Of a stretch of 64,000 nucleotides of DNA, positions 945-20,797 are shown one piece after another. The position numbers and the translations under genes are program-made. This DNA is from Lepidodermella squamata (taxonomy: Eukaryota; Animalia; Gastrotricha): positions 2,852,001 through 2,916,000 of the forward strand of contig JBLDXI010000042.1 in NCBI GenBank assembly GCA_047495785.1, read 5' to 3'. Every line of letters begins with the position of its first letter. Positions within the stretch are counted from its first letter, which is position 1. The notes below the pieces were generated by a model. That model worked only from the letters and a program-made list of their open reading frames with translations. It made no database searches and was not told the DNA's origin.

Positions 945-1367
945 TTCATCTTCTCCTTTTATATCAAAAATCACAATATTTAATTGCTTAGATTTTTTGG
1001 CGATTATATATAAATTGTCTCCAATTTTTTTTGGCTTTTCTCAAGAGTTTCATCTCTCCTCATAATTCTGAGAGAAATAAGATGCATGATGCTTTGAAAA
1101 TCTCAATTTTTTGTAAAGCTTTAAAATCCAATTTTTCTGAATATTTTTTTTTGCATATTAATTATCATAATTAACCTTTCTCGCTATTCTTTATTGATCC
1201 CAATTTTAGTCCTCAAAATATTATATTATTTGAAGATCTTCTGTATTTATACTTCCGCATAATACTTTGTTTTATTCAAAACTGCGTTGATTTCGCTGCG
1301 AACCGCGACAAGGATAAGAGAGATAAAAATAAAAAGGAGTTGCGTTAATATTTTTTACCAGCTGATT

Positions 1368-4198
1368 TTATGACGATGCGATTGTTGACGGAGTGATAGC
1401 TCTCTCAACGAGATTTCCTGACCCACTTTGATGAACCTGGAAGAGAAACGATTAAGTAAAAATTGAAGCTCAACAAACTGAAATTATACTTGTAATAGCT
1501 GTAAGGTGAGATTGATTAGGCTCATGGCGATTACTACACAGCTGATAGCTACGTGAACATTCGCGAAACTCGAATCGAGAGCAAGAGCCAGGACAACTGC
1601 CGCCCCGATAAGTATAAATTGAGCGTAAACGGCTGTCCTCAGCAGAGCAATCTCGGGAAACGAAGTTTTCGTTGCCTATTAAACAAAGAAAAAATAATAG
1701 TTCTAGAATTGCGAAGTTTCTGTGATAAGAACTCACTGATCTCAGAGCTATGGAAAGGAAGATCAGTCTACCTAGAAGTAGGCCAATCCAAGCGATTGAT
1801 GCTCCAAGGAGACCTAGCGAGACTTCGGATGATGGCATGTGACAAGCGAACCAAACTTGGCGAATGTTAGTGCTGACTTCAGTTGGGGACGGAAAAAGGT
1901 CCCCATAAACTCTCTCAACTTTCAAGCCATCAATGGATAGCCAGAGAACAAAGAGGATTACCAGAACCACAACCCATACTAAGCCAGCTGTTGCGTATTT
2001 CGAAAACACCTTGCGGGCGGATTTTATCAGCGAGCTCTGATAGCTTGCATTCCCGGCAACTGCTTGCGCCTGCTTGAATCTACGACCTACCTGAGGACTT
2101 GGATGTGATCGAAATAACGACAGGGGTGAAAATCCTCGAGGTACAGCAAATTTGTTGCCAGCTAAAGCAGCCACTGCAGCTGAAAATGTCTCAAGCTTAA
2201 CCCACACAGAAACGAACACCATCCCGCCACCGCTCAAGATCAACGCATAGATAATGGAGCAATTTACGTGTGCATTTCGCTCTATCCCGTACGGAAGACT
2301 GATGACACTTGAGACGAAAATGCAGTTTCCGATTGCGAATGAAACATCGATTGGCGCGAAGTAAAATCTGCTCTTCTTTTTTTGACAACTCTGAATTATC
2401 ATGCAAGGAATGCTGATCGCCATAATAATAGCGGAAATGACTGCAAAATAACGAAAAATAAGGAGTGATGCAAATTCGAAGAAATTCACCTGTGAGGGAT
2501 ATGTAAACTGAATCGTCGATGGCCGGAACGACGGACAAAACTGTTCGAATCGAGTCTCCCGGGGGTTTATTGTTTAACGTACCCCATTTGATCCCATTAG
2601 GACCCAGAACGAGTGGTTTGGATGTGCTACTAACGTTGAAGTAACCGATTGAGTTACGCAACAAGCTCCCGTTGCTGTTTTTGAGTAATTGGTTGAAGAC
2701 AATTGGGGCGAATCCTTTCGTGTTATCCTCAGTTTCAGCCTCGTATTCGAAATCGCATCGCTGGCCGCTTAAACGGAAGTTATACAGACTTTTCACCATG
2801 GTCTCGAAGAACCATTTTCCGTTGTTTTGAAAGTTAGGGGCGCTAGTTACCCAATTCGACAAAGTATCGTTACCTGTTGGGATTAAATTATTCTCAGAAT
2901 CAAGTTCAATTATCTATGTCTTACGAGTATTTAGGAACGTTTCCGTTGAGTTTAACCAAGCAGCCATTAGCAGTGTCAAATCGTAAAGCATAATTGGCCA
3001 TAAGGGCCATAGTGAATTCGAACTAAGATTATCTGATATTTGCGACTGAATTCCGGTCAGGACTTGATTAGCAGAAAACCCGCTGATGTCGACTGCAGAC
3101 GGTCCTAATACCTCGGCTTTCGTGTTAGGATTACCAAACGTGAAAAACCCATCCATCACGTCTACGAGCATAGCTTCCGTGCACCATTTGTACCTGGTTG
3201 GATCGCTTGGACTGAACACTGTTAAAGACATATAGAAAATCGCAATGCCTTTTCCGTAAAGGTTGTATCTGTGGAGGAAGCATGCTAATCTTGCACCGAA
3301 GTTGCTGTTGATGTAGATTATCCGTGGGTTGTTACTTGCCAGCTCCTCCACAGCCATTCGCATGTCATTTTCATCGGGAGCGCCAAATGCGGGTACCTTA
3401 TGCAATTGCAAAGTCATATTTCGCTTTTCCAGGTCTCTCTGCATGGCGATTTCCATTGCGTTGTAGCTAGGGCCGATGTCTGACAAGACGTGAAGCCTTC
3501 GCCAGCCCATGGCTTGCATGAAGTAAACTAGGGAGAGTTGCACGTTGGTTATCAGAGGTCCACTGACGTAGTATCCAGCAAATTTGCGGCGATCAAGGAT
3601 GATTTCAGGGGTTGAGGATGTTCCGGTCATCGCCACGAAGTTGTAGTGGTGAGTGAAGTGACCTCTGCAGGAAATCAAGGTAAAATAACCATGAAATCAG
3701 AACTACGACTTACGTCCAAGTCTGGGCTCCGCAAAGAGTTGCGATCATCATTGGAACACGATTATATGCAACATCAGCCGAGTTGAATCTTCTGACTGTC
3801 GCAGGGATTGTATCAGCTCGTGCGCACTGCAATCATTTTGAAAGTATAGAACAATAATGAATAAGGTTAACTTTTCTTACAGTGTCGTCAAAAGGTTCTA
3901 CCACTAGATCGTAATCTTGAAGAAGCCCTGGAACGGTTTCGATTCTATCCAGAGCGAGTTGAATAGCTTTCGATGCCATTGCGCGCATAGGAAAAACTGC
4001 GCCGGCGTAATTTATCGACGCAAGGATTGTTATCAACTTTTTTCCTGGTCTAGGAGTACCAGTGAAGTTGAGGCCTCCCAAAGCTGTCGAGGCGATATAT
4101 CTCGGAATCGGGCTGTTCAACGGAATGCTCATCTGCTGCCCAGTTGAACACATAAGACTACCGAGTAAGATGCTGAGAGCAACAATTAACTGGGGCAT
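1368..4198 (-). CDS. Class C (GABA-B-like) GPCR, copy 1: signal peptide, ANF/periplasmic-binding-type ectodomain, 7TM; multi-exon
   Basis: ORFs 3833-4198, 2914-3678, 2197-2862 and 1470-2489 are separated by ~50-bp introns. Motifs AIQLALDRI..LLQDYDL..DD, MGWRR, WGTLNNKPPGD, then hydrophobic helices and LWLSIDGL..FAC. Stop TAA at 1368-1370, homologous to copy 2. Confidence 0.75.
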
Positions 4199-4955
4199 GT
4201 TTTAACTGAATAAAATTTAATACTGAGGTCGAGTTCCTTTTGGTTGAGAATGGCTTTTGAAGCGCATCTAGGCTGGTAGCGTGGTGTTGATTAAGGAAGT
4301 TGCGAACGCGTGGGAAAATCGGGGAAATTCCACAGCACCAGCAGGAGGGCGTCGAAAGAATCGGATGCACTTTGCTTCGTTAATTCCTAATGGTGTTTTC
4401 ACACGTTCTACGCTTGGACACCTGATTCATTTAAAAGGTAAAGGAACCGGAAGCGAATAGGGTTTTTGCAATACGATATTCATTTTTTTGCACCTAAAAC
4501 TAGTAGAAACTTTTAAACGTCTCTACAAACTCGGTGCACTAAGCAGCAATTATCGTAGCAGGGTAACGTACTACGTACTGCCCTGAAATGAAGCATTTTT
4601 TCAAACGCATAGGCAGATATTTATCAGAGGCCCGTTCATTTATTCAATAATCAATCGCAATTCTTTTGAAAATTCGGTTCAGTTTGATAATTTTTCAGAT
4701 GTTAGAGACTGATTGAGAGACATAAGGCACGGAAGCGGTGGCAGATTGTTGATGTTTGTCATAAAACTCAGGTTACGACGATTCAGGTCACGGTAATGTT
4801 GTGTACCCAATTTCGCTAAATGCAGGTGCGATTTCAACCATTTCCAAATTGCGGCATTTCTTCAATTTTAAAAATAAGTTGTTGAAGGTTGGGTGAAGAG
4901 TATTCACAAGCTTGTTAAAAGCACCGTTCCAAGCTTCTGTGTCAGTAGTAGGGGG

Positions 4956-6910
4956 GGGTCATTCCAGGTCAAATCGACCGACGACCCAACCCATGTTCTC
5001 AGATCATCCCCGAACTAATTTTATCGGATAGAGCTCAAAAAATTAGGAAACTTTTACTCTTGTGACTTTTTTCAATGACGCAAGGGCGGGCTTCTAAAAT
5101 TAAAAAACGAAAACCGACTCTAAATCATAGCAACGGTTGCCAGGTTGCTAGATCTCACCAGGTATGAACGCTCAAGGCGAGCTCTTTTTATCAGACCATC
5201 ACGTCGACGTACTCGAGCGATTAGAGCGGCGTCTTGCTTTACCTTGACTTACTGTTTTCCAGCATGGTTAAAAGAACTTAAAAAATTAGCCAAAAATCGC
5301 TATTTTCGAATCAATTTTTCACCCTTTCGAACGCGGTTTTATACCTCAAATTTGATACCATCGGATTCAGCGCAAAAAGTTGTATAACATATGTCAAAAT
5401 CACGAGGGTAATTTTCTTCTATACCGAGAATTAATTTTACGAAGATTGCCAAAAAGCATAGCCAGTAAGCACACCATGTTTACAATTATAATTAGGTTTT
5501 GCAAATGGAATTTTCTGAATGCGTGATTGCTAATGATTTAACAGTCATTATCCATGTAATTTATATTAAACTTGACGGGTAGCAAAGCAAATCTTACAAC
5601 TGGGCTTACGGGAAGCTGGTAGAGGTTTACTGTCACCTGTGTCACTGAAGAACTTATGAACAACGAATGCCTATTTGCCTTATCCGCAGTGGGACAGCAG
5701 TGGAAGCTGGAGGATATTCCATTTAGGTCTAGGAACTTCATCTATATAAGTCTAGGAACTTCATAGGTATATAATTCCTCCGCTGTACTAAATGTCACAT
5801 GTTATAATTTCTTTCAATACTCTTCAAAGCCTCACCTTAGACTTGCCTTACAACCAAAAAATCGAATTTCGGAACAATATGGAGCTGGTAGCTTAAGTTT
5901 AACGTATATACTTATTTACCGAATACAGTCTTATTTAAATATGAATTCGGATTTATTTGGCTTTCAACAATGGCGCAGAGTGGGACTTGCCGCAAGCAAC
6001 CGCAAAAGCCAGTGTGAGGGCGTATAACCGTAGAGAGGCTGTGATGGAAACGGCATGAAAAGGCTAAGCACTAAACTCTATCACTTAATGAATCGAACAA
6101 TGATGACCTGCCATTCGTAGCCTTGGGAAATAACTCAAGTGAACAAGGGATTACAGTACAAGATTTGCTAATTGGTGATCAAATGATATCATCAAGGGCA
6201 TAACTAGCCTTACGTCAATTGTGGGGCTTGGTGTGGCATATCATGAGCTAGTATCCGTTGTATTTTGATGTCGGTCTATTCCATAAGCTTGTATGGATAT
6301 ACGGCATTCGATCACGAGTTCGGGTGAAACAACTATAAAAATGAACAGATCATCCCTCAATCATCCACGTGCTTGAAGAGAGCGCGTGTTCTATCTATAA
6401 TATTATATGCTTTTTGGCAATCTTCGTAAAATTAATTCTCGGTATAGAAGAAAATTACCCTCGTGATTTTGACATATGTTATACAACTTTTTGCGCTGAA
6501 TCCGATGGTATCAAATTTGAGGTATAAAACCGCGTTCGAAAGGGTGAAAAATTTATTCGAAAATAGCGATTTTTGGCTAATTTTTTAAGTTCTTTTAACC
6601 ATGCTGGAAAACAGTAAGTCAAGGTAAAGCAAGACGCCGCTCTAATCGCTCGAGTACGTCGACGTGATGGTCTGATAAAAAGAGCTCGCCTTGAGCGTTC
6701 ATACCTGGTGAGATCTAGCAACCTGGCAACCGTTGCTATGATTTAGAGTCGGTTTTCGTTTTTTAATTTTAGAAGCCCGCCCTTGCGTCATTGAAAAAAG
6801 TCACAAGAGTAAAAGTTTCCTAATTTTTTGAGCTCTATCCGATAAAATTAGTTCGGGGATGATCTGAGAACATGGGTTGGGTCGTCGGTCGATTTGACCT
6901 GGAATGACCC
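4956..6910. mobile_element. Non-autonomous DNA transposon / foldback element with 505-bp TIRs (4956-5460 and 6406-6910) and a ~945-bp core
   Basis: GGGTCATTCCAGGTCAAATCGACCG... at 4956 is the reverse complement of ...CGGTCGATTTGACCTGGAATGACCC ending at 6910. The arms are nearly identical (one mismatch seen near 5312/6554), which explains the identical ORFs 5145-5387(+) and 6479-6721(-). TSD not clear. Confidence 0.9.
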
Positions 6911-6948
6911 GAGGGGAGGAAAAGTTAACGGTTTTTCCGATTTGAATA

Positions 6949-7497
6949 TTTCCCGCGCGACCTTGACCTTGAGCTAACCCTAACCCTAACCCTAACCCTA
7001 ACAGGATTCCTTAACCCTAACCCTAGGCCTAGGGCTTAACCCTAACCCTAACCCTAGGGCTTAACCCTAATCCTTAACCCTAACCCTAATCGATAATCCC
7101 TAGCCGATAACCGATTTCGATCAACCGATATTGATTGATTTTGAATTAATTTCCCGCCAAAATAGGCGTAACCCTAACCCTAATCCTTAACACTATTCTT
7201 AGGGCTTAACCCTAATCCTTAACACTATTCCTAGGGCTTAACCATAATCATTAACACTAACCCTAATCGATAATCCCTAACCCTAGTCGATATCGATTGA
7301 TTTTTCCAACGGAAAAATAATTTGAAATTTTCCCGCCAAAAACTATTTTACCGCCAAATATTCCCGCCAAAACCCTAGTCAAAATTTGAATTTTCCAAAA
7401 TTCCAACGGTCACTCGCTAGTTTTTGAAAAGGAAAATTGAAACTTTCCCGCCAACCATTATTTCAGCGCCAAAATACCAAAATATGACCTTGACTCT
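6949..7497. promoter_or_regulatory. Cluster of E2F-like TTTCCCGCC(AAA) motifs plus TGACCTTGAC nuclear-receptor-like half-site repeats
   Basis: TTTCCCGC(C/G) at 6949, 7150, 7329 and 7444; TTCCCGCCAAAA at 7361; near-matches at 7348 and 7461; GACCTTGACCTT at 6959 and TGACCTTGAC at ~7485. Function is inferred from consensus only. Confidence 0.45.
6974..7286. repeat. Degenerate telomeric-type (CCCTAA)n arrays in two blocks (~6974-7100, ~7169-7286)
   Basis: Runs of ctaaccctaaccctaacc with variants cctagggcttaacc and cctaatccttaac. Confidence 0.9.
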
Positions 7498-7979
7498 TCC
7501 GGCATAAATTCAAACTTCTAAAATGTAATGGGCATGTGACGCAAAAGTAACCAATGCATGAGTCATCTTGCAAGAGTGAAAGTACCCTCTGGAATTGTCA
7601 CGTTTTACGAGACCAAGCCAAGCTTTTATGTCTCGCCAACGGTCAGCTGCGAATATTCTTAAAATGTCAGCTTGACATAACGGCAACTTGCTATGATAAT
7701 AAATGCGGAGTCAACCTTTTCGTCATATGTGTAGATTCCGCTCTGGTAATGAAAGACATTTCAGCATACAAAAGTTAGTAAAACTCGACTGCATTTTTCT
7801 ATTTGTATCCTTGGATTGAGAAAAGCCATGGAGTGCAATCTTTACATTTACTTCGATTAGATTTCGATAGCGATTTCGAAATACAAAGGTTAATATAATG
7901 TTTAATAATATTGTAATAATGTTGATTATTTTTTTTATATACAGGTCACCAGTTGGCATTTTCCTCCTCCACAGGAGGA

Positions 7980-8416
7980 CTAGGGGGGCTGTGGAGGAGG
8001 ATGAGGTACGAGTAATCCGTGAATGTCCCATAATATCTGGATGATAGTGTTGTAGCTGGCTACTGAGTTCTGCAAGTGATCATACATTTGACCTGCCTCG
8101 TCGTAGCTGAAGAAAGAAAAATATAAGGTATGTTGAATTTTTTGACATTAAATACGTACAGGTTTACAAATAGTTGAAAGAAAATTTCAGCTATTTGAGG
8201 ATTAGCCATTTCAGGATAAGTAGATAAGTAAAGTTGCCAAGTAAAATGATGCGTAAGAATATGACAAGGTATTGTACAGTTGATATAAATTTTGTAAGAT
8301 TTCGCCAAAAAATGTTTTTGAAAACTGAGCGTTGCATCTCGGCACCATTTATACAATGTATATGCAGAGAAGTCGTTAACAGGTAGAATGTAATAAAAAG
8401 CAAGTAAATTCGTCAT
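7980..8416 (-). CDS. Small hypothetical protein of the Maverick-like element (2 exons), possibly frameshifted at its 3' end
   Basis: ORF 8060-8416 splices through a GT-AG intron at 8107-8159 to YDEAGQMYDHLQNSVASYNTIIQILWDIHGLLVPHPPPQPP*. Confidence 0.4.
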
Positions 8417-8451
8417 GTTACCTCATTTTCTCATTTTTCTTGGAATATTAA

Positions 8452-9000
8452 ATGCTTGAAATTGATGTTACTGTGCAAAATGTTGTTTCCACACTCTCGC
8501 TGGGGGTACATTTTGATCTGCGGAAAATTATTCACCTCTTCAAAATGGTTGAGCTTAAACAAAAGTTTCCAAATGCTCTCGTCATTAAAGAGCCGCACTT
8601 CAACGCTTTGCTATTTAAAAACGGGAAAGTAGTGCTTTTTACGAAGAATCCTGAACTGGCAAAAATTTATGGGCGAAAACTGGCAAGGAAACTACAGCGA
8701 CAAGACAACACTGCCATAAAGGTATCTAAGATTCGCCTGGTAAACAGTACTCTTGCGGGAAAGATGCCAACTGGAATAAACATAACTGAGGCCTTAATAG
8801 CTCGTGTTGCCAAACTCTGTGCGCGAGCGATATATGATGATACTAGATTTCCGGCACTGCGGTGTAAAAATGTGACCAATGGTTCAACATGCGTGAATGT
8901 ATTTTCGTCGGGGTGGATAATAGTGACTGGCATTAAAGATTTAACTACACCTCTGACGCAGCTTGAAACTATATTATATGCGATACTATATGAGAAATAA
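8452..9000 (+). CDS. Divergent TATA-binding protein (TBP)-like protein, core domain only, intronless
   Basis: Two TBP repeats: VQNVVST..FDLRKI..FP..LLFKNGKVV and IRLVN..YDDTRFPAL..VFSSGWIIVTG; 182 aa. Confidence 0.85.
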   Translation: MLEIDVTVQNVVSTLSLGVHFDLRKIIHLFKMVELKQKFPNALVIKEPHFNALLFKNGKVVLFTKNPELAKIYGRKLARKLQRQDNTAIKVSKIRLVNSTLAGKMPTGINITEALIARVAKLCARAIYDDTRFPALRCKNVTNGSTCVNVFSSGWIIVTGIKDLTTPLTQLETILYAILYEK

Positions 9001-9942
9001 AAATTGGACGCGACACACACTCGACTGAATGTTAATAGCCTACGTCCATGCTACTATGTAGTAGTAGCATGCCATTGAAACTGCGTACATTTATTCTTAA
9101 ATTTAGCGTCTATGATCTTAGGCTGTTCCGATGCTATGGAAAGAAGAACTGCTGTAATAAAAATTAAGATTTCGCAATGAAACTCTGGGGAATCAATTCT
9201 AATCTGGAGCAGTTATCCACAATTCAAGTTCATCGTTGTACTGTTTCGCCAATGCCTTTAATGTTGACGGAATCATCACATTCCGTCGCAGTTTGCTCGA
9301 ACGAAGTTATTCATAGAAATTAGAAATAGACCGTTTTACACACACTGGAAATCGATGGGATCCTCAGGTATGATTTGTCATGACTACATTTAATTCAAAA
9401 TAGCTAAATTTCCATTTCATTCATTCAGATCATATATGGAACAGGATCCGGATAAGTGTAAGTTCTTAAAGACATAAATCAATCAAAATTCATTGTATTT
9501 TTTTTTTCTTAGACGCTGCCCGATGACATGTGTCAATATGGTGCGCCGTTAAGTAATAAAAGTTTTCAAGCAAGCCGATTGTACGCGATTTAATGTGCGG
9601 ATATTGTAATAAAAATTGAGAAACACTTGAAATCGGGTCGCTTTTTATTACAACGCGTGCTGATCAACAATAAAAATTCAGAAACAGTTGCTAAATAAGC
9701 AATAAAAATATGAATTTGGAGACATCATTCGGAAACGAGTAAACCGTTGAAAAGTCATTTAAATAAGCTAACGTTCTCGAGGAATGAAACTTGACAGTTT
9801 TCAAATGAGCATTATATCCCTATGAGTTTTTAGCCGAACCCAATTTATTATCATTATTCGTGAAAATCGGACAACTATTTTCCATCTTCATTAGTGAAAA
9901 ATGGATTTTCACGGGTTTTTCTGCTATTCTCCGCGATTCAAG

Positions 9943-12390
9943 ATGGACGTTGTCAAATATTCCTCGCAAGCGATCGATCCTTCAGATCAGATAGGGTTTG
10001 GATTTGAAGACGACGCCGATGAGGATGATGAAAGCGGCTTGGAAATACTGAAACTTTTATCGAAAATTAATTCGCAATTCGAAGGATTGGTAGAGAAATT
10101 GCGAAACTCTTTCCATCCATGGTAGGAACTCGTTATTTAAGAGTAAAAATGAAACTTTTTAACTGAAAATTAGGGATTACGTTCGGGTTGAACTTTTCCA
10201 CCCCAGCTTGAATTTTCCAGTAAATACGAAATACCTTCAAGTACAGGAATTGACTGGTGCTATGATCATGGACGAGATAAACTCGGTGATGCAGTCTAGA
10301 CTTTCAATAGCCATGAACAACGGTTCGATTTAATATTACTGGAACTTGGAATGATTTTCATTATTAAAATTAGGCTGGAGCTACAACATCTATAGAATTG
10401 CAGTGGGTGAACTGGAAGATGGCGAGCAAGGCTACGGTGGCAAGGGTGGTAAACGACGCCGACTTGAGGAAACAATGGTTGACTTCATAATGGGTCACAA
10501 TGAAGTCCTTCCAGTGGAAAATGATGCTGATAATCACTGTCTCTTCAGGTCAATCGCACATTCTCTGTTATATCGTGATCACAAACAACCCCGGCCGGGC
10601 TGCCAACCTCACGGTGACTATGACAGACTACGGCCAGGATTTTCGAAAGACCGCATGTCAACATCCGAACTAGCGAATCTGGAAAGGGCTGCAATCAAAG
10701 CATATCAGGGCGAACTAGCACTGAAACTCATGAATGCCGCGGGAATCCAACCTAATCAAATGGCATATGGTCTTGACGAATTCAAGCGGGTTATTGATAC
10801 GATTGGCTTACCCTATCGAGGCAATAATTATTTTAAACAAACTAAAATTCGATAAAAACTTTTGGAAATTAACAGGTGTTATTTACAACTTCATGGATAA
10901 GCAAACGATGGCTGTACATCCGGAAGCAGGACTCACAATTGCCGATGAGCGAAAAATTTTGATCGGTTATATCAACAACAGAGCCTTGGCATCACATCGC
11001 GAAAGTGGGCGGTACGATCGAAGCGTGGGACATTATGTTGGATTTACAAGTAGGAGAAATTTATAAAATGCATAATTTGAAATTCATTCCTAAAAAATGA
11101 AACAGGCATTAGCACAATTTCTGGGGAGAAGATGATGTGCCCGCGATGTTTCATGTTGCACAAGAAAAACAACCTGCAGCACACGTGCCGTTTTAAGTGC
11201 AACAGGTGCCAGCGAGCCGGCGCAACATGTCGTGACTCGAACGAACGAACAATGTTATGCGGGAGTTGTGGCTTATTTTTCCACGGGGCCCTGTGTTTCA
11301 TGAATCACCAGACACCTGAAACACCCGGAGCTGCGACCATTTGCCAGTCCTACTTCATGTGCGGCAAGTGCGGTAGGAAAATTGGGATAGCGCAAAAGGG
11401 AAAACATAACTGTGAGTTGATGAAATGTGAAAAAATCCACCTTAATTTTTGCTACAATGTGACTATAGGTCAATCTCGGACGTGTCGAACTTGTAACGGG
11501 CCAATAAGCTCGGAGGAGGGTGACGAGGAACACAGCTGTGTCATTCAACCAGGCAGGCTTCGCAAAGATCCTCTGCGAATTGCCGGAGCTTGGGATACCG
11601 AAACAATTCAGTTGGAAACCGGAGAACTAGTGCCAGTCGTGATAGTGTTGAACATGTTTTGTGACTCGTGTCAACACATGCTTGTCACCGCAACGTGTCC
11701 CAAATCGTGTACTGGTGACGACCCGCGCCAGCAGATCTTCGTTTTAACTGGTGCGGATTCCACCTGTGTAAACCAGTTTATGAAATTTTTGCTGCGAGAA
11801 AAGTATTCTGGAATTTTACTTCTCTCTCATAATGGTTCAAGGTGGGAAAATCGAAGAGTTAGATTTCGAAAATTTAATTTAATCTCGCTATAGATTCGAT
11901 AATTTTATGGTCCTGAAATGGTTACAACAGCACGATTATCAGTTCGATCATATTTACAAAAATAACACAATTATCGAGCTATCTGTTGAGAAAAAAGCAA
12001 TCGTATTTCGAGACTTTTACCTCCTCTCCATGTCATCGTTGGCTTCGCTTTTCCACTGCTTCGGTCTGGATGAGGATGCGAATGCAACTGGAAAGGAATT
12101 TTTTCCCTATAAATTGCTGACATCAGCGAATTTCCTTTCCGATAACGAGCGAGACTTCCCAACCTTGGATGACTATGACACAAACCGGCTTTCGGATTCA
12201 AAACTCGCTGAGTTGCAACAATTCTTAGCTGAAAATCAGCATCAAAAGTTCCACCTTCGTAATCAGCTGATTAATTACTGCCAGTCCGATGTAAATTTGC
12301 TGCATAGAGCTTTAATCAAGTTCCGATCGATGTTGCGAGAATTCACAACCCGAGACGACAAGTGTCCGGAAGGCATCGACGCTATATGGG
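9943..12390 (+). pseudogene. Polinton/Maverick protein-primed DNA polymerase B (N-terminal region, Zn fingers, 3'-5' exonuclease), intron-containing, truncated before the polymerase domain
   Basis: The spliced product has DYVRVELFHPSL..LT..IMDEINSVMQS, NDADNHCLFRSIA, GHY..TS, a Cys-rich region, ExoI WDTET, ExoII HNGSRFD, FRDFY..SL..L, GKEFFPY and ExoIII YCQSDV. Introns at 10122-10173, 10323-10373, 10821-10875 (GC-AG), 11050-11105, 11412-11468 and 11842-11893; a further donor at 12391 has no recognisable continuation. Confidence 0.85.
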
Positions 12391-12727
12391 GTATGATTAT
12401 AAAAGAGTCGCTAATCTACTTTTTACGGTCGATCTTTGGCAAGCCATTTGAACAGCACAGAAACTTTTGAAGACGACTAACCAACCTGAAGAGTAGCCAA
12501 TTTTTTTTCATTGGAGTCACATCTGGCTGGTTCCGGCCTTCTGGGACCGGCTCCAACTGGGAGAAGACTAAACACCTATCCACTGGCGAATTCGATTGAT
12601 AACTTTGATCGAAACCAGAACGAACCCAGATCAAACCAAACAATGAGTTAACAAAGATTGCTCGAAAAATCGCCTGAAATCAGCTAGGCCGATAGGGCGA
12701 TTTCGACCACTTTGACCACTAGGGATT

Positions 12728-15548
12728 CTAGGACGATGCGATTCTTGAGGGGGTGATAACTCTCTGTACGCTATTTCTTGCTAGAGTTTGATAAACCTGA
12801 GAAATACCAAAGTAAATTGAAGTTAAAAGAGTCACAGTTAAAATTACTTGTAACAGCTGAATACTGATATTTATGAGACTCATGGCGATTACTACACAGC
12901 TGATGGCCACGTGCACATTCGTGAAACTGGAATCGAGAGCAAAAGCAAGTACCACCGCCGCCCCGATAAGTATAAATTGAGAGTAAACGGTGGTTCGCAG
13001 CAAAGCAATCTCGGCAAACGAATCTTTCGATGCCTGTAATAGGAGGAAAACTTACTTATCGCGAAATTTCTATGGTAAAATAACTCACTGATTTCAGAGC
13101 GATGGAGAGGAAAGCCAATCTCCCTAAAAGTAGACCAATCCAAGCGATTGATGCTCCAAGGAGACCTAGCGAGACTTCGGATGATGGCGTGTGACAAGCG
13201 AACCAAACTTGGCGAATGTTAGTGCTGACTTCAGTTGGGGACGGAAAAAGGTCCCCGTAAATTCTCTCAACTTTCAAGCCATCGATGGATAGCCAGAGAA
13301 CAAAGAGGATTACCAGAACCACAACCCATGCTAAGCCAGCAGTTGCGTATTTCCAAGACACCTTACGAGCGGTCTTGATTAAGGAGTTCTGATAGCTTGC
13401 ATGAGACTGGTTAGATTTCGGCCCAGGAAGAAGACGGCTGGGATTTGATCGAAATGATGCCAATGGTGATATCCCTTGACGTATAGAGAATTTGTTTTCC
13501 GCCAAAGCCACGACTGCAGCTGAAAATGTTTCGAGTTTTGCCCAGACAGAAGCGAATGCGATCCCACCACCGCTCAAGATAAAAACATACGATAGGGAAC
13601 AATTTACGTGGACATTTGTCTCAATTCCGAATGGCAGAGAAATGACACTCGAGACGAAAATGCAGTTTCCGATTGCGAATGCAACATCGATTGGCGCGAA
13701 GTAAAACTTTCCCTTGTTCTTTTGACAACTCTGAATTATCATGCAAGGAATGCTGATCGCCAAAATTATTGACGAAATGACTGAACAAGATCAAAAAATT
13801 CTAACGATTTTTGCGAATTTAAAACGCTCTCACCTGTGAGGCCTATATACACTGAATCATCAATTGCTGGAACGACGGACAAAACTGTTCGAATCGAGTC
13901 TCCCGGGGGTTTATTGTTTAACGTACCCCATTTGATCCCATTAGGACCCAGAACGAGTGGTTTGGATGTGCTGCTAACGTTGAAGTAACCAATCGAGCTA
14001 CGCGACAAGCTCCCGTTGCCGGCCTTGAGAACTTGAGTGAAGACAATCGGCGCAAAACCTTTCGAGTTATCTTCAGTTTCAGCCTCGTATTCAAAATTGG
14101 CTCGTTGACCGCTTAAACGGAAGTCATACAGACTTTTCACCATGGTATGGAAGAACCATTTTCCGTTGTTTTGAAAGTTAGGGCCGCTAGTTACCCAATT
14201 TAACAAAGTATCGTTACCTGTAGAGATAAAACAATTCTCGGAGTTAAGCTCCATTAACCGACTTACGAGTCTTTAGAAATTTTTCGGTCGAGTTCAACCA
14301 AGCAGCTATTAGCAGTGTCAAATCGTAAAGCATGAATGGCCATAAGGGCCAAAGTGAGTTTGTGCTAAGATTGTCCGAAATTTGCGACTGAATTCCGGTC
14401 ATAACTTGATTAGCAGAAAAGCCGCTGATATCGACCGAAGACGGTCCCAATACCTCGGCTTTCGTATTGGGACTACCAAACGTGAATAGTCCATCCATCA
14501 CATCAACAAGCATAGCTTCCGTGCACCATTTGTACTTGCTTGGGTCGCTTGGACTGAATACGGTTGTAGATATAAAAAATAATGCGAATCCTCTCCCATA
14601 AAGGTTGTATCTGTGGAGGAAGCATGCTACTCTCGCACCGAAGTTACTGTTGATGTAAATTATGCGTGGATTGTTGCTTGCCAAATCTTCCACAGCCATT
14701 CGCATGTCATTTTCATCGGGAGCGCCAAAAGCAGGTATTTTGTGCAACCCTAATGTCATGTTTCGTTTTTCTAGCTCTCTCTGTAGGGCAATTTCCATGA
14801 CGTTGTAGCTTGGGCCGATGTCGGACAGTACATAAAGCCGACGCCAGCCCATGGCTTGCATGAAGTAAACGAGGGAAAGTTGGACATTGGTTATCAGAGG
14901 TCCACTGACGTAATAGCCGGCGTATTTACGGCGATCAAGGATAATGTCGGGCGTTGAAGATGTCCCAGTCATTGCCACGAAGTTGTAGTGGTGAGTGAAG
15001 TGACCTCTGTGAGATAATTAATAAAATAAAATCTGAAAAGAGTCATACAGCTTACGTCCAAGTTTGAGCCCCACAGAGAGTTGCGATCATCATTGGAACA
15101 CGATTACATCCAGCATCAGCCGAGTTCAGTCGTTTGACTGTCGCAGCAATTGTATCAACTCTTCCGCACTGCAATCATTTTGAATATATTTCTGAATTAG
15201 GTAAACCTCTCTTACCGTGTCGTCGAAGGGTTCTACCACTAGATCGTAATCTTGGAGAAGCCCTGGAACGGTTTCGATTCTATCCAGAGCAAGTTGAATA
15301 GCTTTGGATGCCATTGCGCGCATAGGAAAAACTGCGCCGGCGTAATTTATCGACGCAAGAATTGTTAACAGTTTTTTTCCTGGTCTGGATGAACCGCTAA
15401 AGTTTAGTCCTCCTAGGGCGGTCGACGCGATATATCTCGGGATTGGGCTGTTTAGCGGAATGCTCATCTGCTGCCAAGTTGATCGCACTAAACTACCGAG
15501 TAAGACGACGCTAACAGCAACGACGGAAGATCTAATGGATTTGTTCAT
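12728..15548 (-). CDS. Class C (GABA-B-like) GPCR, copy 2; multi-exon paralogue of 1368-4198
   Basis: ORFs 15126-15560, 14244-14978, 13766-14254 and 13056-13763 are nearly collinear with copy 1 and share intron positions. ATG at 15548 (MNKSIRSSVVAVSVVLL), stop at 12728. Confidence 0.75.
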
Positions 15549-16183
15549 CTTTTTATTCAATCGAAATCAAGGTTGAAATAAATGTCCTTGGTTTGACGCT
15601 GACCATATGAGCGCGCTATTTATGCATTTTATGGGCGTGCTGTTGATAAAGGAAGCCACGAGCGCGACAGCGTGGGGAGATTCCTTTGCGCTGTAGGTGG
15701 AGCGCATCGTAGATGACGGATGCACTTTGATGCATTATTTCTGATGTGGCTACTTTTCACTTTCAGTGTCTTTCTAAACTTGGACGTTGGCTTCAGCATG
15801 CAGGTCTGAAATATCGCGAACAAGCCGGAATCGAGTAGTACTTATCGTAATAGGACTCACTTTTGGCTGTCACGACATGTCATGTGAGTTTTCGTATCAA
15901 GAAGCGGACAATCTCCAGTTACACCCCCTAAGGCAGGATCATGGACAATCAATTGCGTACCATTGCAACAGAGAATGGGGCCCTCGATTATGGCCGAAGA
16001 AAATGCTCATTCTCCAAGTCCGGCTGGAAATGCTCGCTGAAATTCACCTTGTATCTCTTCAGAGCCGGACTTCATATAAATGGCGATATCTTTAATAGGT
16101 ACTGTATTTTTATTTATCGGAAAATTTTTTCATCAATAGGTTTGGGGTTTGATATTTGATCTTTCTTATGCGCAAATTGCTCT

Positions 16184-17563
16184 TTAATTATCGTCGCCGT
16201 CTGTGAAGCATGGTGGGACGGGGCTTGAGTTGATAGCCTTGCCTTGAAAGTAAGAGCATAGATACTGACCTCCTTTGACTGGCCAACCCCCTCCGCCATG
16301 TACATTCACGCTGTCAAACAAAATACCAGTTGCTGGATTCGAAACATTTGCAACCATAATGCCCGGCGAAAGAACTCCGTCGTAGATATTCACGCGCTGC
16401 AGCGTGATATTCCTCAGCGAAATGTTCGGGTTAGTTTGGCATTTCGTATTAAAAGCTGGGTACAAAAACGAGCAGCCGGTACCGGTGCCATGGGGCTGGT
16501 GTTGCTGCTGAGTGCCTATAAAAATTGCCCACCAAAGCGGACGGTGAATGTTGATATCACGATAAGCGATGTTAGCAATAAGACCAGTGCCGTGGTCTCC
16601 CGGGTTTGGTTTGATATAAATAGCTTTCAGGGGCGTCGTGAAGTTGACATCAACAACTTCGACACCATCGATGCAGTTCACGTTTGGATTTGGAGGGACT
16701 GAGCCGATACTCATGCCCACGCCTAACACGACGTTAGAATGGGTGATTGTGATGTTTCTAGTGCAATTCGACCCGAATTGACTTCTATCACCCGCATTCA
16801 TCGGCTTGACAGCAACAGCGTCGTCAAAGTTTTCAATCGTCACATTTGTGATGAGTACGTCTTTCCCAGAGACGTCGATGCCATCCGTATTGAGCGGAAA
16901 AGTCGGAATAGTGATTCCTAGATGATTTTCAACAAGCTTCCCAGCGCTCTTCAGGATTTTCTTCTGACCATCGACATCAACATAGATCGTCAAATTCCAG
17001 ATGCGCGCACCAAAAACATCTGTTATGTCTATGTGGTATTGAGGGGCGTTTTCAACTCTGAATCCAGTTAGGGTTACATTAGAGGACGAATCGATTACTA
17101 AAAGGTTAGGCCGATGGTCTTGACCTTTAACTATCACGAAATTCCACCATTCGTAGCCATTTCCCAATATTGAACCGGATCCTTGAATAGCCAGGTTTGT
17201 TGCATTGGTGAAGCGAATCATGTTGTAGACGTTATCAGGGTACCCGGGCCAGTTTTGGGCAAAGTTATCGGTGTATGCAGAAAGGTTGCCATCAAGTTGG
17301 ATTACTAAGTTTGATACTCTATCAATTTTCAGCTCAGCTGGTAGGAAAGCGTAGGTCTTGCCACCAGGAATCAATACTTGGCGATTCATGGGGTCTGAAG
17401 ACGCATTGGCTGCGGCGACTGCGCTGGCAAAGGCAGCCCCGTTGGCAAGAGCTTGGGTTTTGGAAAATACTCCGGCAACGGCTCCGAAACTTTCGATATT
17501 AGTTTGCTGCAGCGAGAATCTGCAGAGGCTGATAACCATCAGAATAGTAGCCGTGAGCTTCAT
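16184..17563 (-). CDS. Secreted glycoside hydrolase family 28 (polygalacturonase-like), intronless
   Basis: Signal peptide; FGAVAG, GNGYEWW, RP, NTDGIDV, NFDDAVAVK, GMSIGS and YIK motifs; beta-helix composition. Confidence 0.9.
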   Translation of the reverse strand: MKLTATILMVISLCRFSLQQTNIESFGAVAGVFSKTQALANGAAFASAVAAANASSDPMNRQVLIPGGKTYAFLPAELKIDRVSNLVIQLDGNLSAYTDNFAQNWPGYPDNVYNMIRFTNATNLAIQGSGSILGNGYEWWNFVIVKGQDHRPNLLVIDSSSNVTLTGFRVENAPQYHIDITDVFGARIWNLTIYVDVDGQKKILKSAGKLVENHLGITIPTFPLNTDGIDVSGKDVLITNVTIENFDDAVAVKPMNAGDRSQFGSNCTRNITITHSNVVLGVGMSIGSVPPNPNVNCIDGVEVVDVNFTTPLKAIYIKPNPGDHGTGLIANIAYRDINIHRPLWWAIFIGTQQQHQPHGTGTGCSFLYPAFNTKCQTNPNISLRNITLQRVNIYDGVLSPGIMVANVSNPATGILFDSVNVHGGGGWPVKGGQYLCSYFQGKAINSSPVPPCFTDGDDN

Positions 17564-18388: not shown

Positions 18389-20797
18389 TCAACTTACAAC
18401 CTCAAACACAATGGATGTCAAAGCAGACGAGATCAGCGTAAAGAACGCTATAACGATTTGTTGTTCAGTGACTTGCCCGTTCAATATGACGCATATTAGC
18501 AGAGCTGCGACGATTAACACCAAAGCATTTATCTTGGCAACAGCTGCATATGTGAAGTCCATCCTGCCGAGAGTGAATGCAATCTTCCGTTTCTTGATCA
18601 CGTTTGGATAGTCTCTTTTCAATAGATACCACGTTAGAAGACCAATGACCAGAATAAAGATGTTGAAACAAATAGCTGAAAAAACCCAAGCTGTTTGGTA
18701 ATTTGATGAACATGATCTGACAGAAGTGGTGAGAAATGTATCAATATCATCGTCATAAAATTTCGAAATGACCATCTCACTGCAGGTGACAGGATCAATA
18801 ATAAGCCAAACAATCAAGAACGTAGTTAAGGTGGCTGTAAGGGCACTGCAAATTGAGTTTGAAAGCTTTGCTGCTTTTCGGGCCAACTTTTTCTCCAGGC
18901 TAGAATCATTTAGGCGATCAGGTTTGCGTAACTGCGATGCGTTCGATGCTAGTCTGTCAAAACTAGCCATTTCTTGGCAAGAATCATCCGAGTCACGCTT
19001 GCTTATATTACCGGAGCCGAACGTGTTTAAACCAGATTTTTTCGATGACGCAGCACGTTGCGGCTCAAAGTGATTCGCGGCGACTGGGTCAAGCATGAGA
19101 ACGAAAACAGCCGACAAGGATCGACAGACCAAGAGGTCATGCATACTTGTGATTCCTAATACAAGAAAAACAGTCCTGACGATCGAAATAAGCTCTGAAT
19201 TAGGGCTGGCCGTGAACGCAACAGCTGATGTATTCGCAACTATACAGCTCAGAGTTCCTACAGTAAGAACAAAGGCGGAATTTGTCTTCTTCTTTGAAGT
19301 GCAGAGAATGATGGCTGCCTCGACTGCTTGAATAAAGGATATTAGGGCGCCCAATGCTAACACAGAAATAAAAACGCCATCTGAAACCCGTTCATCGATA
19401 TCAATGTGGAAAGCTCCGTCTCTGGGCGGCTTTTTCCAAGCAAGCCAGTCGAAGTTTTGCCCTGCACTGCTTCGTATTTTGTAGTCCGTGTAATCTGCAC
19501 TAGCAGATGCCCCCTCGTAATTCATTTCGAAGACAGTTTTCAGGCCACCTTGATCTTGCGCGACGCTGATTACTGCAATGTCACCTTCTTGCTGACCGTT
19601 CGCACGACTGAAGCGTACTTTTGACAGTCGAAGACCCACCGCACTGACCGCCATCATCGATCGATTAACGTACTCGCTGATCATTCGTGGTTTATTTTCG
19701 TAATCGGAGAGAGTCAAATTAGCTTGCTGTCTCAGCTGTTTATCCGCGTGATCTAAGACGAGGGCGGCGAACATGGCTGTGTCGTAGTAAAGGTATCGCC
19801 GCTCGTTATCCGGAGGCTTCGAACCATTCAAACGTCGATCGAGTTCTGTATCGTAATCCGCCAAAGTATGACCGATTGATGACGCTTCACTGGCATTTGT
19901 CTTTCGAAAAATTGGTCCAATGAAAAATGTGTACCTTTGCTGCTCGAGGACAATGTCCCTCGTACAATTCGGGTAAGGATTTGGGGGAACTGCTCCTGGT
20001 GGAGTGTAAGCCGAAGTCGTGGTTATGAACACATACCTCTCTCCCGTAATACCAGCTTTGTAGGCTAAGCAGTACAATGGCCATAGATTAGCTGTCAGTG
20101 GAGTGTACAGCACGATTATTCTGACATCTGCAGCTTTGATGGAATCAATGAGCGTTTGATCAACCGTGATAGAGATACTGAATACCGGCACGGTGAGATT
20201 CCTCGACAGAGCTAATTTTTGAATTTCCAGCGAGCCAATGTAGTCATTGAGACTAGCTACAGTGCAAGCTACAGCAAATCGACGCCACTTTCCAATGAAC
20301 TCGATGAACTGAACCAAAGCTTTTATGTAAGGATCATTACTCCATGTTTGAAGAAACAGATTAGGATATCTGACGCGGTTGGTTAGTTGAGTTGCTTGAC
20401 AATTAGTGCTCAGAAGAACTGAGTCGTAGTGATGCAGTAAGGAACCCATCACCTGGCAGCTTGCCGACTGAAATCCTCCAATAGCGAGGGCTGATTTTAC
20501 TGGAGATGTTAATCCATTACCAGACCGGTTGTTGTAATAGTTGGCAATCACAACAGCAGATCGGTCTCCGAGAGTTTCATCGTCAAATATTGGAACGAGT
20601 TCATAATCAGGCAGTATGTCTGAGCGGTTGTTGATAGTTTCGAAAACAATGTTGGCGCTATGAAAGCAAGGTTCACAGAACTTTGCTGGGCGTTTTGCCA
20701 CTGTTATGATATCCAAAACTTGAAGCTTTTTAGGCTTTGCAGCGCTCGAAGACGAAGCCAGAAAGACGATGGTAATAATATAGCAATGTTGAAACAT
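18389..20797 (-). CDS. Class C (GABA-B-like) GPCR with ANF-type ectodomain, single exon
   Basis: Signal peptide MFQHCYIITIVFLASSSSA; INNRSDILPDYEL, LTNRVRYPNLF, KWRR, DVRIIV, YVFI, YDT, KPPRDG, then 7TM with WLIIDP..CSS. Confidence 0.8.
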   Translation of the reverse strand: MFQHCYIITIVFLASSSSAAKPKKLQVLDIITVAKRPAKFCEPCFHSANIVFETINNRSDILPDYELVPIFDDETLGDRSAVVIANYYNNRSGNGLTSPVKSALAIGGFQSASCQVMGSLLHHYDSVLLSTNCQATQLTNRVRYPNLFLQTWSNDPYIKALVQFIEFIGKWRRFAVACTVASLNDYIGSLEIQKLALSRNLTVPVFSISITVDQTLIDSIKAADVRIIVLYTPLTANLWPLYCLAYKAGITGERYVFITTTSAYTPPGAVPPNPYPNCTRDIVLEQQRYTFFIGPIFRKTNASEASSIGHTLADYDTELDRRLNGSKPPDNERRYLYYDTAMFAALVLDHADKQLRQQANLTLSDYENKPRMISEYVNRSMMAVSAVGLRLSKVRFSRANGQQEGDIAVISVAQDQGGLKTVFEMNYEGASASADYTDYKIRSSAGQNFDWLAWKKPPRDGAFHIDIDERVSDGVFISVLALGALISFIQAVEAAIILCTSKKKTNSAFVLTVGTLSCIVANTSAVAFTASPNSELISIVRTVFLVLGITSMHDLLVCRSLSAVFVLMLDPVAANHFEPQRAASSKKSGLNTFGSGNISKRDSDDSCQEMASFDRLASNASQLRKPDRLNDSSLEKKLARKAAKLSNSICSALTATLTTFLIVWLIIDPVTCSEMVISKFYDDDIDTFLTTSVRSCSSNYQTAWVFSAICFNIFILVIGLLTWYLLKRDYPNVIKKRKIAFTLGRMDFTYAAVAKINALVLIVAALLICVILNGQVTEQQIVIAFFTLISSALTSIVFEVVS

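Follow-up and report, generated by a model that had tools for sequence, protein, structure and literature searches.

An intact TBP-fold gene in a truncated Maverick/Polinton-like element of a gastrotrich, and its probable role in promoter recognition

Why should a mobile element carry its own TATA-binding protein (TBP)? The question is raised by a 64,000-nucleotide stretch of the genome of the gastrotrich Lepidodermella squamata (contig JBLDXI010000042.1, positions 2,852,001 to 2,916,000; hereafter the window), in which an open reading frame (ORF) for a TBP-like protein lies at 8452-9000 on the forward strand. The ORF is the intact gene of a truncated Maverick/Polinton-like fragment, and on balance we think that its product serves as the element's own promoter-recognition factor, a reading held with no great confidence.

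The ORF runs unbroken through 182 codons from ATG to TAA and requires no intron; an ORF of this length was found in none of 300 dinucleotide shuffles of 7300-9900. Its product contains two PF00352 repeats (Pfam E 9.9e-19, 67.4 bits, where the TBP cut-off is 22.9 bits), and is core-only, the TBP core occupying residues 5-179 of 182. Among solved structures, phmmer in the PDB puts yeast TBP at the top (E 1e-9), and its best matches, which take in plant and human TBP as well, range from E 1e-9 to 6e-8. A model calculated with AlphaFold2 from an 8-row alignment has a mean predicted local distance difference test score of 82.3, and its helices and strands follow one another as in a two-lobed saddle. 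Foldseek superimposes it on human, plant and yeast TBP with template-modelling (TM) scores of 0.82-0.84 (0.83 for human TBP), root-mean-square deviations of 2.0-2.8 Å and 22-29% sequence identity. Identity to a plant TBP core is 30%, whereas true TBP cores are ~80% identical across eukaryotes (PMC3142196), so the protein falls outside the canonical orthologues by that measure. The first-pass annotation of the locus, made from the sequence alone, had described an intronless 182-amino-acid core-only TBP fold, far more divergent than a host TBP would be, that keeps four DNA-intercalating phenylalanines (in KFP, LLFKNG, RFPAL and VFSSG). The fold, the divergence and the phenylalanines (F39, F55, F133 and F151) are all borne out. 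The word intronless is correct for the ORF itself but not for its setting, which is a spliced transcription unit.

The residues that bend the DNA are largely conserved. In yeast TBP numbering, used for the whole residue map, the four phenylalanines correspond to F99, F116, F190 and F207, and the saddle asparagines N69 and N159 are retained together with T215, V71, V122, L114 and P191. The basic residues K133, R137, K138, R141 and K145 of helix 2, which presumably function in partner binding, all remain K or R. The C-terminal stirrup is altered by E186D, E188T and L189R, i.e. the acidic TFIIB stirrup of canonical TBP (E188 and E186, the latter a stirrup residue by our own assignment) is replaced by D and T, with R in place of L189. 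The E188T change is present in 42 of 57 relatives, and passages of a published study (PMC12529657) name E184 and E188, with E188 critical for TFIIB. At I194, V203 and L205 the gastrotrich protein has R, C and N, and R194 is nearly fixed among the relatives (56 of 57). These are the TBPm3 positions, located close to the second base pair, and changes at them in yeast TBP alter TATA specificity, as passages of PMC1636458 state.

The relatives of the protein are distant. A word-indexed protein search returned 48 candidates, none at E 0.001, and a full HMMER scan gave 318 matches at E 0.001, none of them close (24-42% identity over the matched stretches among the best 150). The first tree comprised 115 rows out of 148 near-full cores, most rows more than 55% identical to canonical TBP having been thinned out; in it the gastrotrich protein grouped with five divergent proteins, of which one bears the name of Globodera pallida and another that of Heterodera trifolii. 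A profile of this group collected 94 proteins, 57 of which are named from Heterodera, Globodera or Meloidogyne, with many per species, the other 37 being without an organism name. We note that dozens of 'TATA-box-binding protein' annotations in the genomes of cyst and root-knot nematodes are probably element genes and not host paralogues.

A metagenome scan gave seven loci from 35 pattern matches, representing three distinct elements. In loci L001 and L002 the gene order is protease-like, minor-capsid-like (a label that we assign from general knowledge, Pfam being blank), PAZ, A32 ATPase, NADAR, integrase and TBP. In L003 and L004 it is A32 ATPase, a PAZ-like gene and TBP, and in L005 and L006 it is integrase, TBP and capsid-like ORFs; the only context in L007 is an ORF without a Pfam match that we take to be capsid-like. 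Pfam identifies rve in L001 and L006 and Pox_A32 in L001, L003 and L004, while L002 and L005 hold the same ORFs by reading. Since the gene stands next to Polinton-type genes in these loci, Polintons carry TBP recurrently, and do so in no fewer than two separate lineages. The first-pass annotation had not known TBP as standard Maverick cargo; this recurrence, and a figure label in Starrett et al. 2021 discussed below, revise that view.

In the main tree (IQ-TREE mixture model, 53 hand-picked rows) the gastrotrich protein lies among 16 Polinton-type TBPs with support of 100/95, its nearest neighbor being that of L001. The TBP type of L005-L007 forms a separate group with P0070 and P0146 (support 100/99). 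A C-lobe motif, [YF]DxT/SxFP[AG][LI]RxK, is present in the gastrotrich protein, in four of the 150 best matches (all four in the Polinton clade) and in 53 of 92 profile matches. The protein also shares 8 of 24 family-specific columns, compared with 1-5 for 12 other divergent TBPs. Viral contigs scanned with profiles A2, A3 and A4 gave 16, 32 and 41 pattern matches respectively, with no confirmed relative.

Some further features of the related loci were observed. The L005-L007 type of TBP, located between integrase and capsid-like genes, keeps E186 and E188 and has N159 replaced. A stand-alone PAZ-domain gene (Pfam E 6.6e-8) and a NADAR gene (E 1.1e-38) occur in the related Polintons (L001 1833-2165 and 3757-4167, L003 869-1480) and are possible counter-defence cargo. 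Database gene models fuse related TBPs to PAZ-like or thymidine kinase neighbors.

The window copy lies in an insert at approximately 4944-12402, between two copies of an ANF-receptor-like gene. The candidate left terminus of the element is AGTAGTAGGGG at 4944-4954 (forward strand), whose sole exact match in the window this is, and which to our mind resembles the AG/AGT-repeat ends of Polintons. One contig of run X1 links 4944 to 12403, the joint that an empty site would give, with a shorter side of 32 nucleotides. Within the window there is no partner inverted repeat for this end, and no target-site duplication was seen. On the other side of the TBP gene, at 9898-12402 (forward strand), is the 5′ part of an intron-split gene for a protein-primed B polymerase (pPolB), matching positions 20-166 of 468 of PF03175 (E 3.6e-13). 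By reading, it has what we take to be OTU-like Cys and His motifs, then a Cys-rich stretch and then exonuclease motifs. This order fits the TP-vOTU-EXO-PALM layout of the polymerase gene given in passages of PMC11161782. The palm domain is missing, the gene ending abruptly at ~12400.

The OTU-like piece has no match in Pfam or the PDB. A word-indexed comparison of the polymerase piece with longer proteins gave 255 candidates, none at E 1e-5, a result that carries little weight. PHROGs gave a weak DNA polymerase match and nothing else, and Rfam gave no matches at E 0.1 over 4900-12700. No integrase, ATPase, protease or capsid gene is present among the ORFs scanned in 4200-13100. The window copy is thus unable to move or make particles, because the polymerase palm and the integrase and capsid genes are missing. 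The first-pass description of the gene as mobile-element-borne therefore stands as regards the pPolB piece, the candidate left end and the Polinton context of the relatives, but it applies here to a truncated copy.

Copy number and flanks were judged from contigs of public runs. In run X1 a single 1130-nucleotide contig spans the TBP ORF at a depth of 314, compared with 41.9 for the unique center of an element nested in the insert; the ratio suggests roughly 4 to 8 near-identical copies, although depth is no direct copy number. A deletion derivative, with its break at 8555, is seen in one X1 contig. Copies differ within the TBP ORF at three bases, of which one is silent and two change an amino acid.

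Runs X2 and X4, from two studies, were taken as RNA solely by their GT..AG joints and poly(A), no run being recorded as RNA; runs X3 and X5 contribute small shares only. Upstream exons of a spliced transcript lie at 7795-8127 (forward strand), with an intron at 7889-7944 (X2 GT..AG joint 7886-7943, shorter side 92 nucleotides). Downstream exons occupy 9122-9632 on the same strand, with introns at 9368-9428 and 9458-9512 whose joints are found in both X2 and X4; behind 9632, X2 shows a loose end of poly(A). Between them is an apparent alternative GT..AG intron of 994 nucleotides (8128-9121) that encloses the whole TBP ORF. The removal of the entire ORF by this intron is a hint only: the X2 joint 8125-9120 occurs in one contig with a shorter side of 25 nucleotides, under the 31-nucleotide bridging rule, and two extra letters. 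Other X2 contigs span 8128-9121, TBP ORF included, unspliced.

The polyadenylated transcript whose splicing leaves out the TBP frame (7795-9632) has no convincing reading frame in the window copy, and there are small indels among copies there. Two strong hairpins are found, in the upstream exon (7962-8001; 13-bp stem, -25.4 kcal/mol) and 46 nucleotides behind the TBP stop (9047-9071; 11-bp stem, -13.9 kcal/mol). Upstream of the transcript, the terminal region at 6911-7500 (forward strand) contains TAACCC-rich repeats (tandem repeats 6974-7292) and copies of TTT[CG][CG]CGC, which we take to be E2F-like sites, at 6949, 7150, 7329 and 7444 on the forward and 7473 on the reverse strand (5 of 21 matches in the window). 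The cluster at 6949-7473 might couple expression to S phase, although repeats often contain words of this kind.

What might the protein do? It is predicted to bend a non-standard A/T box, bringing the host's RNA polymerase II (Pol II) to the genes of the element. The changes at I194, V203 and L205 (to R, C and N) would give it another DNA word, and the remodelled C-terminal stirrup (E186D, E188T, L189R) would weaken or re-route contact with TFIIB. Its targets would be the late genes, i.e. the capsid block, and alternative splicing might ration the protein. It could then work like the late-gene TBP mimic of herpesviruses, minus the Pol II-binding domain. A more general proposal, which we offer tentatively and regard as rather doubtful, is that invertebrate Mavericks have a private core-promoter code on host Pol II. 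An element-specific box would be read, without normal TFIIB contact, by a re-tuned TBP core that had been acquired on two or more occasions, and in the element considered here the supply of this TBP would be gated by the alternative intron, excising the TBP frame from a transcript that starts behind the E2F-like sites, so making an early-to-late switch.

Several observations weigh against a role in promoter recognition. A search of the sequences upstream of seven L001 genes brought out no promoter word in common (290-300 of 300 shuffles do as well). The single enriched word of the window element, GTAATAAAA (four copies), was identified post hoc and falls short of significance once corrected (19 of 300 shuffles), and one copy is located where a poly(A) signal is expected. 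Neither is TATAAA enriched. Note that the promoter-word test is weak on the window copy, because the capsid genes that are expected to carry the word are absent there. The protein is without the Pol II-binding extension of herpesvirus ORF24, and there is no room for such an N-terminal domain. At the saddle, T124, K211 and probably R105 are not preserved, although they are retained in its relatives; this may mean weaker DNA binding. The differences between copies within the ORF give no support for selection.

Further points against this reading concern the assignment of the protein to the Polinton family. No other branch in the tree is as long as its own (2.24), and the related family was collected with a profile that included the protein itself. 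Profile scores separate poorly (79.9 bits compared with 61-71), with 6-sequence subsamples overlapping. The approximately unbiased (AU) test does not reject grouping with canonical TBP (p 0.224) or with TRF2 (p 0.292). Thus the phylogenetic check proposed in the first-pass annotation places the protein in the Polinton-type clade with good support, but the AU test does not prove membership.

The alternatives that retain the fold differ in the task assigned to it. As a decoy or dominant negative, the protein would occupy host TATA boxes or soak up TBP partners without initiation, damping the transcription of host or defence genes. The first-pass annotation had entertained both this and redirection of Pol II. 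Retention of the DNA-bending residues alongside changes at E188 and L189 in the TFIIB stirrup would be in keeping with a decoy, as would the conserved basic residues of helix 2 if they do bind partners. However, all three specificity positions are changed, a pattern more in line with a private DNA word than with competition for the TATA boxes of the host, and with E188T in 42 of 57 and I194R in 56 of 57 relatives the surface looks re-tuned and not merely lost. The residue pattern leans towards redirection, and we consider a decoy unlikely. An architectural role outside initiation, in which the protein would bend the termini to serve protein-primed replication, integration or packaging, seems less likely again. 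The TBP gene directly follows integrase in two of three related elements and precedes the polymerase in the window element, which together with the missing promoter word would be consistent with such a role. Yet the neighborhood varies (the PAZ-like gene in L003 and L004), the known viral jobs of the TBP fold are transcriptional, and many Polintons work without TBP (the main texts of PMC10748475, PMC11161782 and PMC11131425 contain neither TBP nor TATA as a term).

The remaining alternatives would deny the gene to the element or deny it a function. The AU tests, and the TRF2 and archaeal profiles that score the protein nearly as well as the Polinton family profile does, leave room for a fast-evolving host TBP or TRF2 paralogue, recently picked up by the element or there by chance. 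This is nevertheless improbable: TRF2 rows are without three of the four phenylalanines, identity to canonical TBP is far below that among true cores (~30% against ~80%; PMC3142196), the family C-lobe motif is present, and the gene lies between the element end and pPolB at raised depth. A decaying retrocopy or pseudogene might be suspected from the truncation of the element, the deletion derivative broken at 8555 and the loss of some saddle residues. Yet in simulations of neutral substitution from a host gene down to 30% identity, none of 2000 frames stayed open (mean 6.5 stops). Among the 39 columns that are conserved across canonical and archaeal TBP, the protein matches the most frequent residue at 19, compared with 32 of 141 others (p 0.002). 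Because no neutral frame stays open and the matches are concentrated on conserved columns, decay of a retrocopy can in practice be excluded as far as these comparisons go; the ORF is moreover covered by contigs of an RNA-like run, and absence of function is highly improbable. Counts of silent and changing differences (1 and 2 between window copies, 0 and 4 for L001/L002, 2 and 3 for L003/L004, 11 and 9 codons for L006/L007) are too few for a ratio of non-synonymous to synonymous rates. The first-pass annotation had named a neutrally decaying retrocopy and a lack of element context as the outcomes that would overturn it; the simulations speak against the former, and the relatives occur beside Polinton genes.

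Other features surround the element. The ANF-receptor-like gene is a tandem duplicate (1364-4386 and 12724-15741, 72-92% alike) that flanks the insert. The left flank has a short frame on the reverse strand (4780-4943), with no Pfam match, that we liken to the C-terminal part of a MULE transposase. A separate non-coding DNA-transposon-like element of 1955 bp (4956-6910), without a long ORF, begins 12 nucleotides inside the candidate Maverick end; its terminal inverted repeats (I1, arms 4956-5460 and 6406-6910) are 505 nucleotides long and 100% identical. The right flank (12403-12660) is repetitive, with X1 joints 4944-12403 (one contig, linking to the left flank) and 12641-12403, and loose ends at 12659-12713. 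The window as a whole is animal DNA: its introns are short, and its host genes include nicotinic receptors, a thioester protein and EF-G. At 16184-17563 on the reverse strand is an intronless gene for a 459-amino-acid GH28 polygalacturonase-like protein (Pfam E 7.8e-32) with a signal-peptide-like start, a candidate for horizontal acquisition. A further intronless ANF-receptor-like gene (802 amino acids) lies at 18389-20797.

How the capsid genes of Mavericks and Polintons are activated matters for the question whether these elements are live viruses and carry genes from animal to animal. A TBP of their own offers a testable handle on this, being a protein of 182 amino acids with a measurable DNA word and partners. 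It would also be a natural experiment on TBP itself, one in which the bending residues have stayed and both the TFIIB stirrup and the three specificity positions have changed.

The protein may be compared with several known systems. With cellular TBP (PF00352; yeast 1ytb/4v1n, human 1cdw/9k3b, plant 1qn3) it shares the two-repeat saddle, the four phenylalanines and the equivalents of N69, N159, T215, L114 and P191. It differs in its low identity (22-30%), the absence of an N-terminal extension, the changes at I194, V203, L205, T124, K211, E188 and L189, and in being encoded by an element-borne and apparently multi-copy gene. TRF2/TBPL1 is likewise a divergent metazoan TBP paralogue, which does not bind TATA (PMC3142196), but six TRF2 rows are without equivalents of F99, F116 and F190. 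The TBPs of nucleocytoviruses and mirusviruses have the same fold (TM up to 0.82 by Foldseek in BFVD), and the nearest ESM Atlas clusters include Nucleocytoviricota, but their identity to the gastrotrich protein is 8-17%, below that of cellular TBP. These viruses mostly encode their own RNA polymerase, whereas the element considered here would depend on that of the host.

A functional parallel may be the ORF24-type mimic of beta- and gammaherpesviruses, such as that of Kaposi's sarcoma-associated herpesvirus. In passages of PMC12529657 and PMC7498053 its TBP fold is described as keeping the four phenylalanines and the proline, with a more polar DNA face and without the TFIIB-contact glutamates. 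The gastrotrich protein too keeps the phenylalanines and the proline and has a TFIIB glutamate changed. By contrast, ORF24 has extra Pol II- and DNA-binding domains and works with five other viral proteins, while the gastrotrich protein is a bare core.

Within Polintons, the sole relevant item found in the literature is Starrett et al. 2021 (PMC8502044), where TBP is a figure label (Fig. 5 legend) for MELD viruses with adintovirus-like PolB. This is a TBP-like gene in a Polinton-type element, but a label only, the text passages giving no phylogeny, residue analysis or function. Neither TBP nor TATA occurs in the main texts of the Maverick cargo preprint (10.1101/2022.07.12.499685), PMC11161782 and the coral survey PMC11131425, or in that of the nematode Polinton survey PMC10748475 as far as available (a search of its supplement was also blank); figures, preprint supplements, subscription papers and Repbase lie outside the scope of the search and may name the gene. 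The nearest likeness is to the Polinton-like TBPs of tylenchid nematodes (L001-L004, P0138, P0176, P0200 and kin), with which the gastrotrich protein shares the C-lobe motif, D186, T188, R194, I213 and, in the main tree, a clade, although the AU test does not prove its membership. It differs from them in its ~27-37% identity, in keeping F207 and in being without 16 of 24 family-specific residues. The TBP of Mavericks is under-described rather than unseen, and the window connects it with a large family of nematode Polinton TBPs, supplies evidence that the region is transcribed and hints at an alternative intron that removes TBP.
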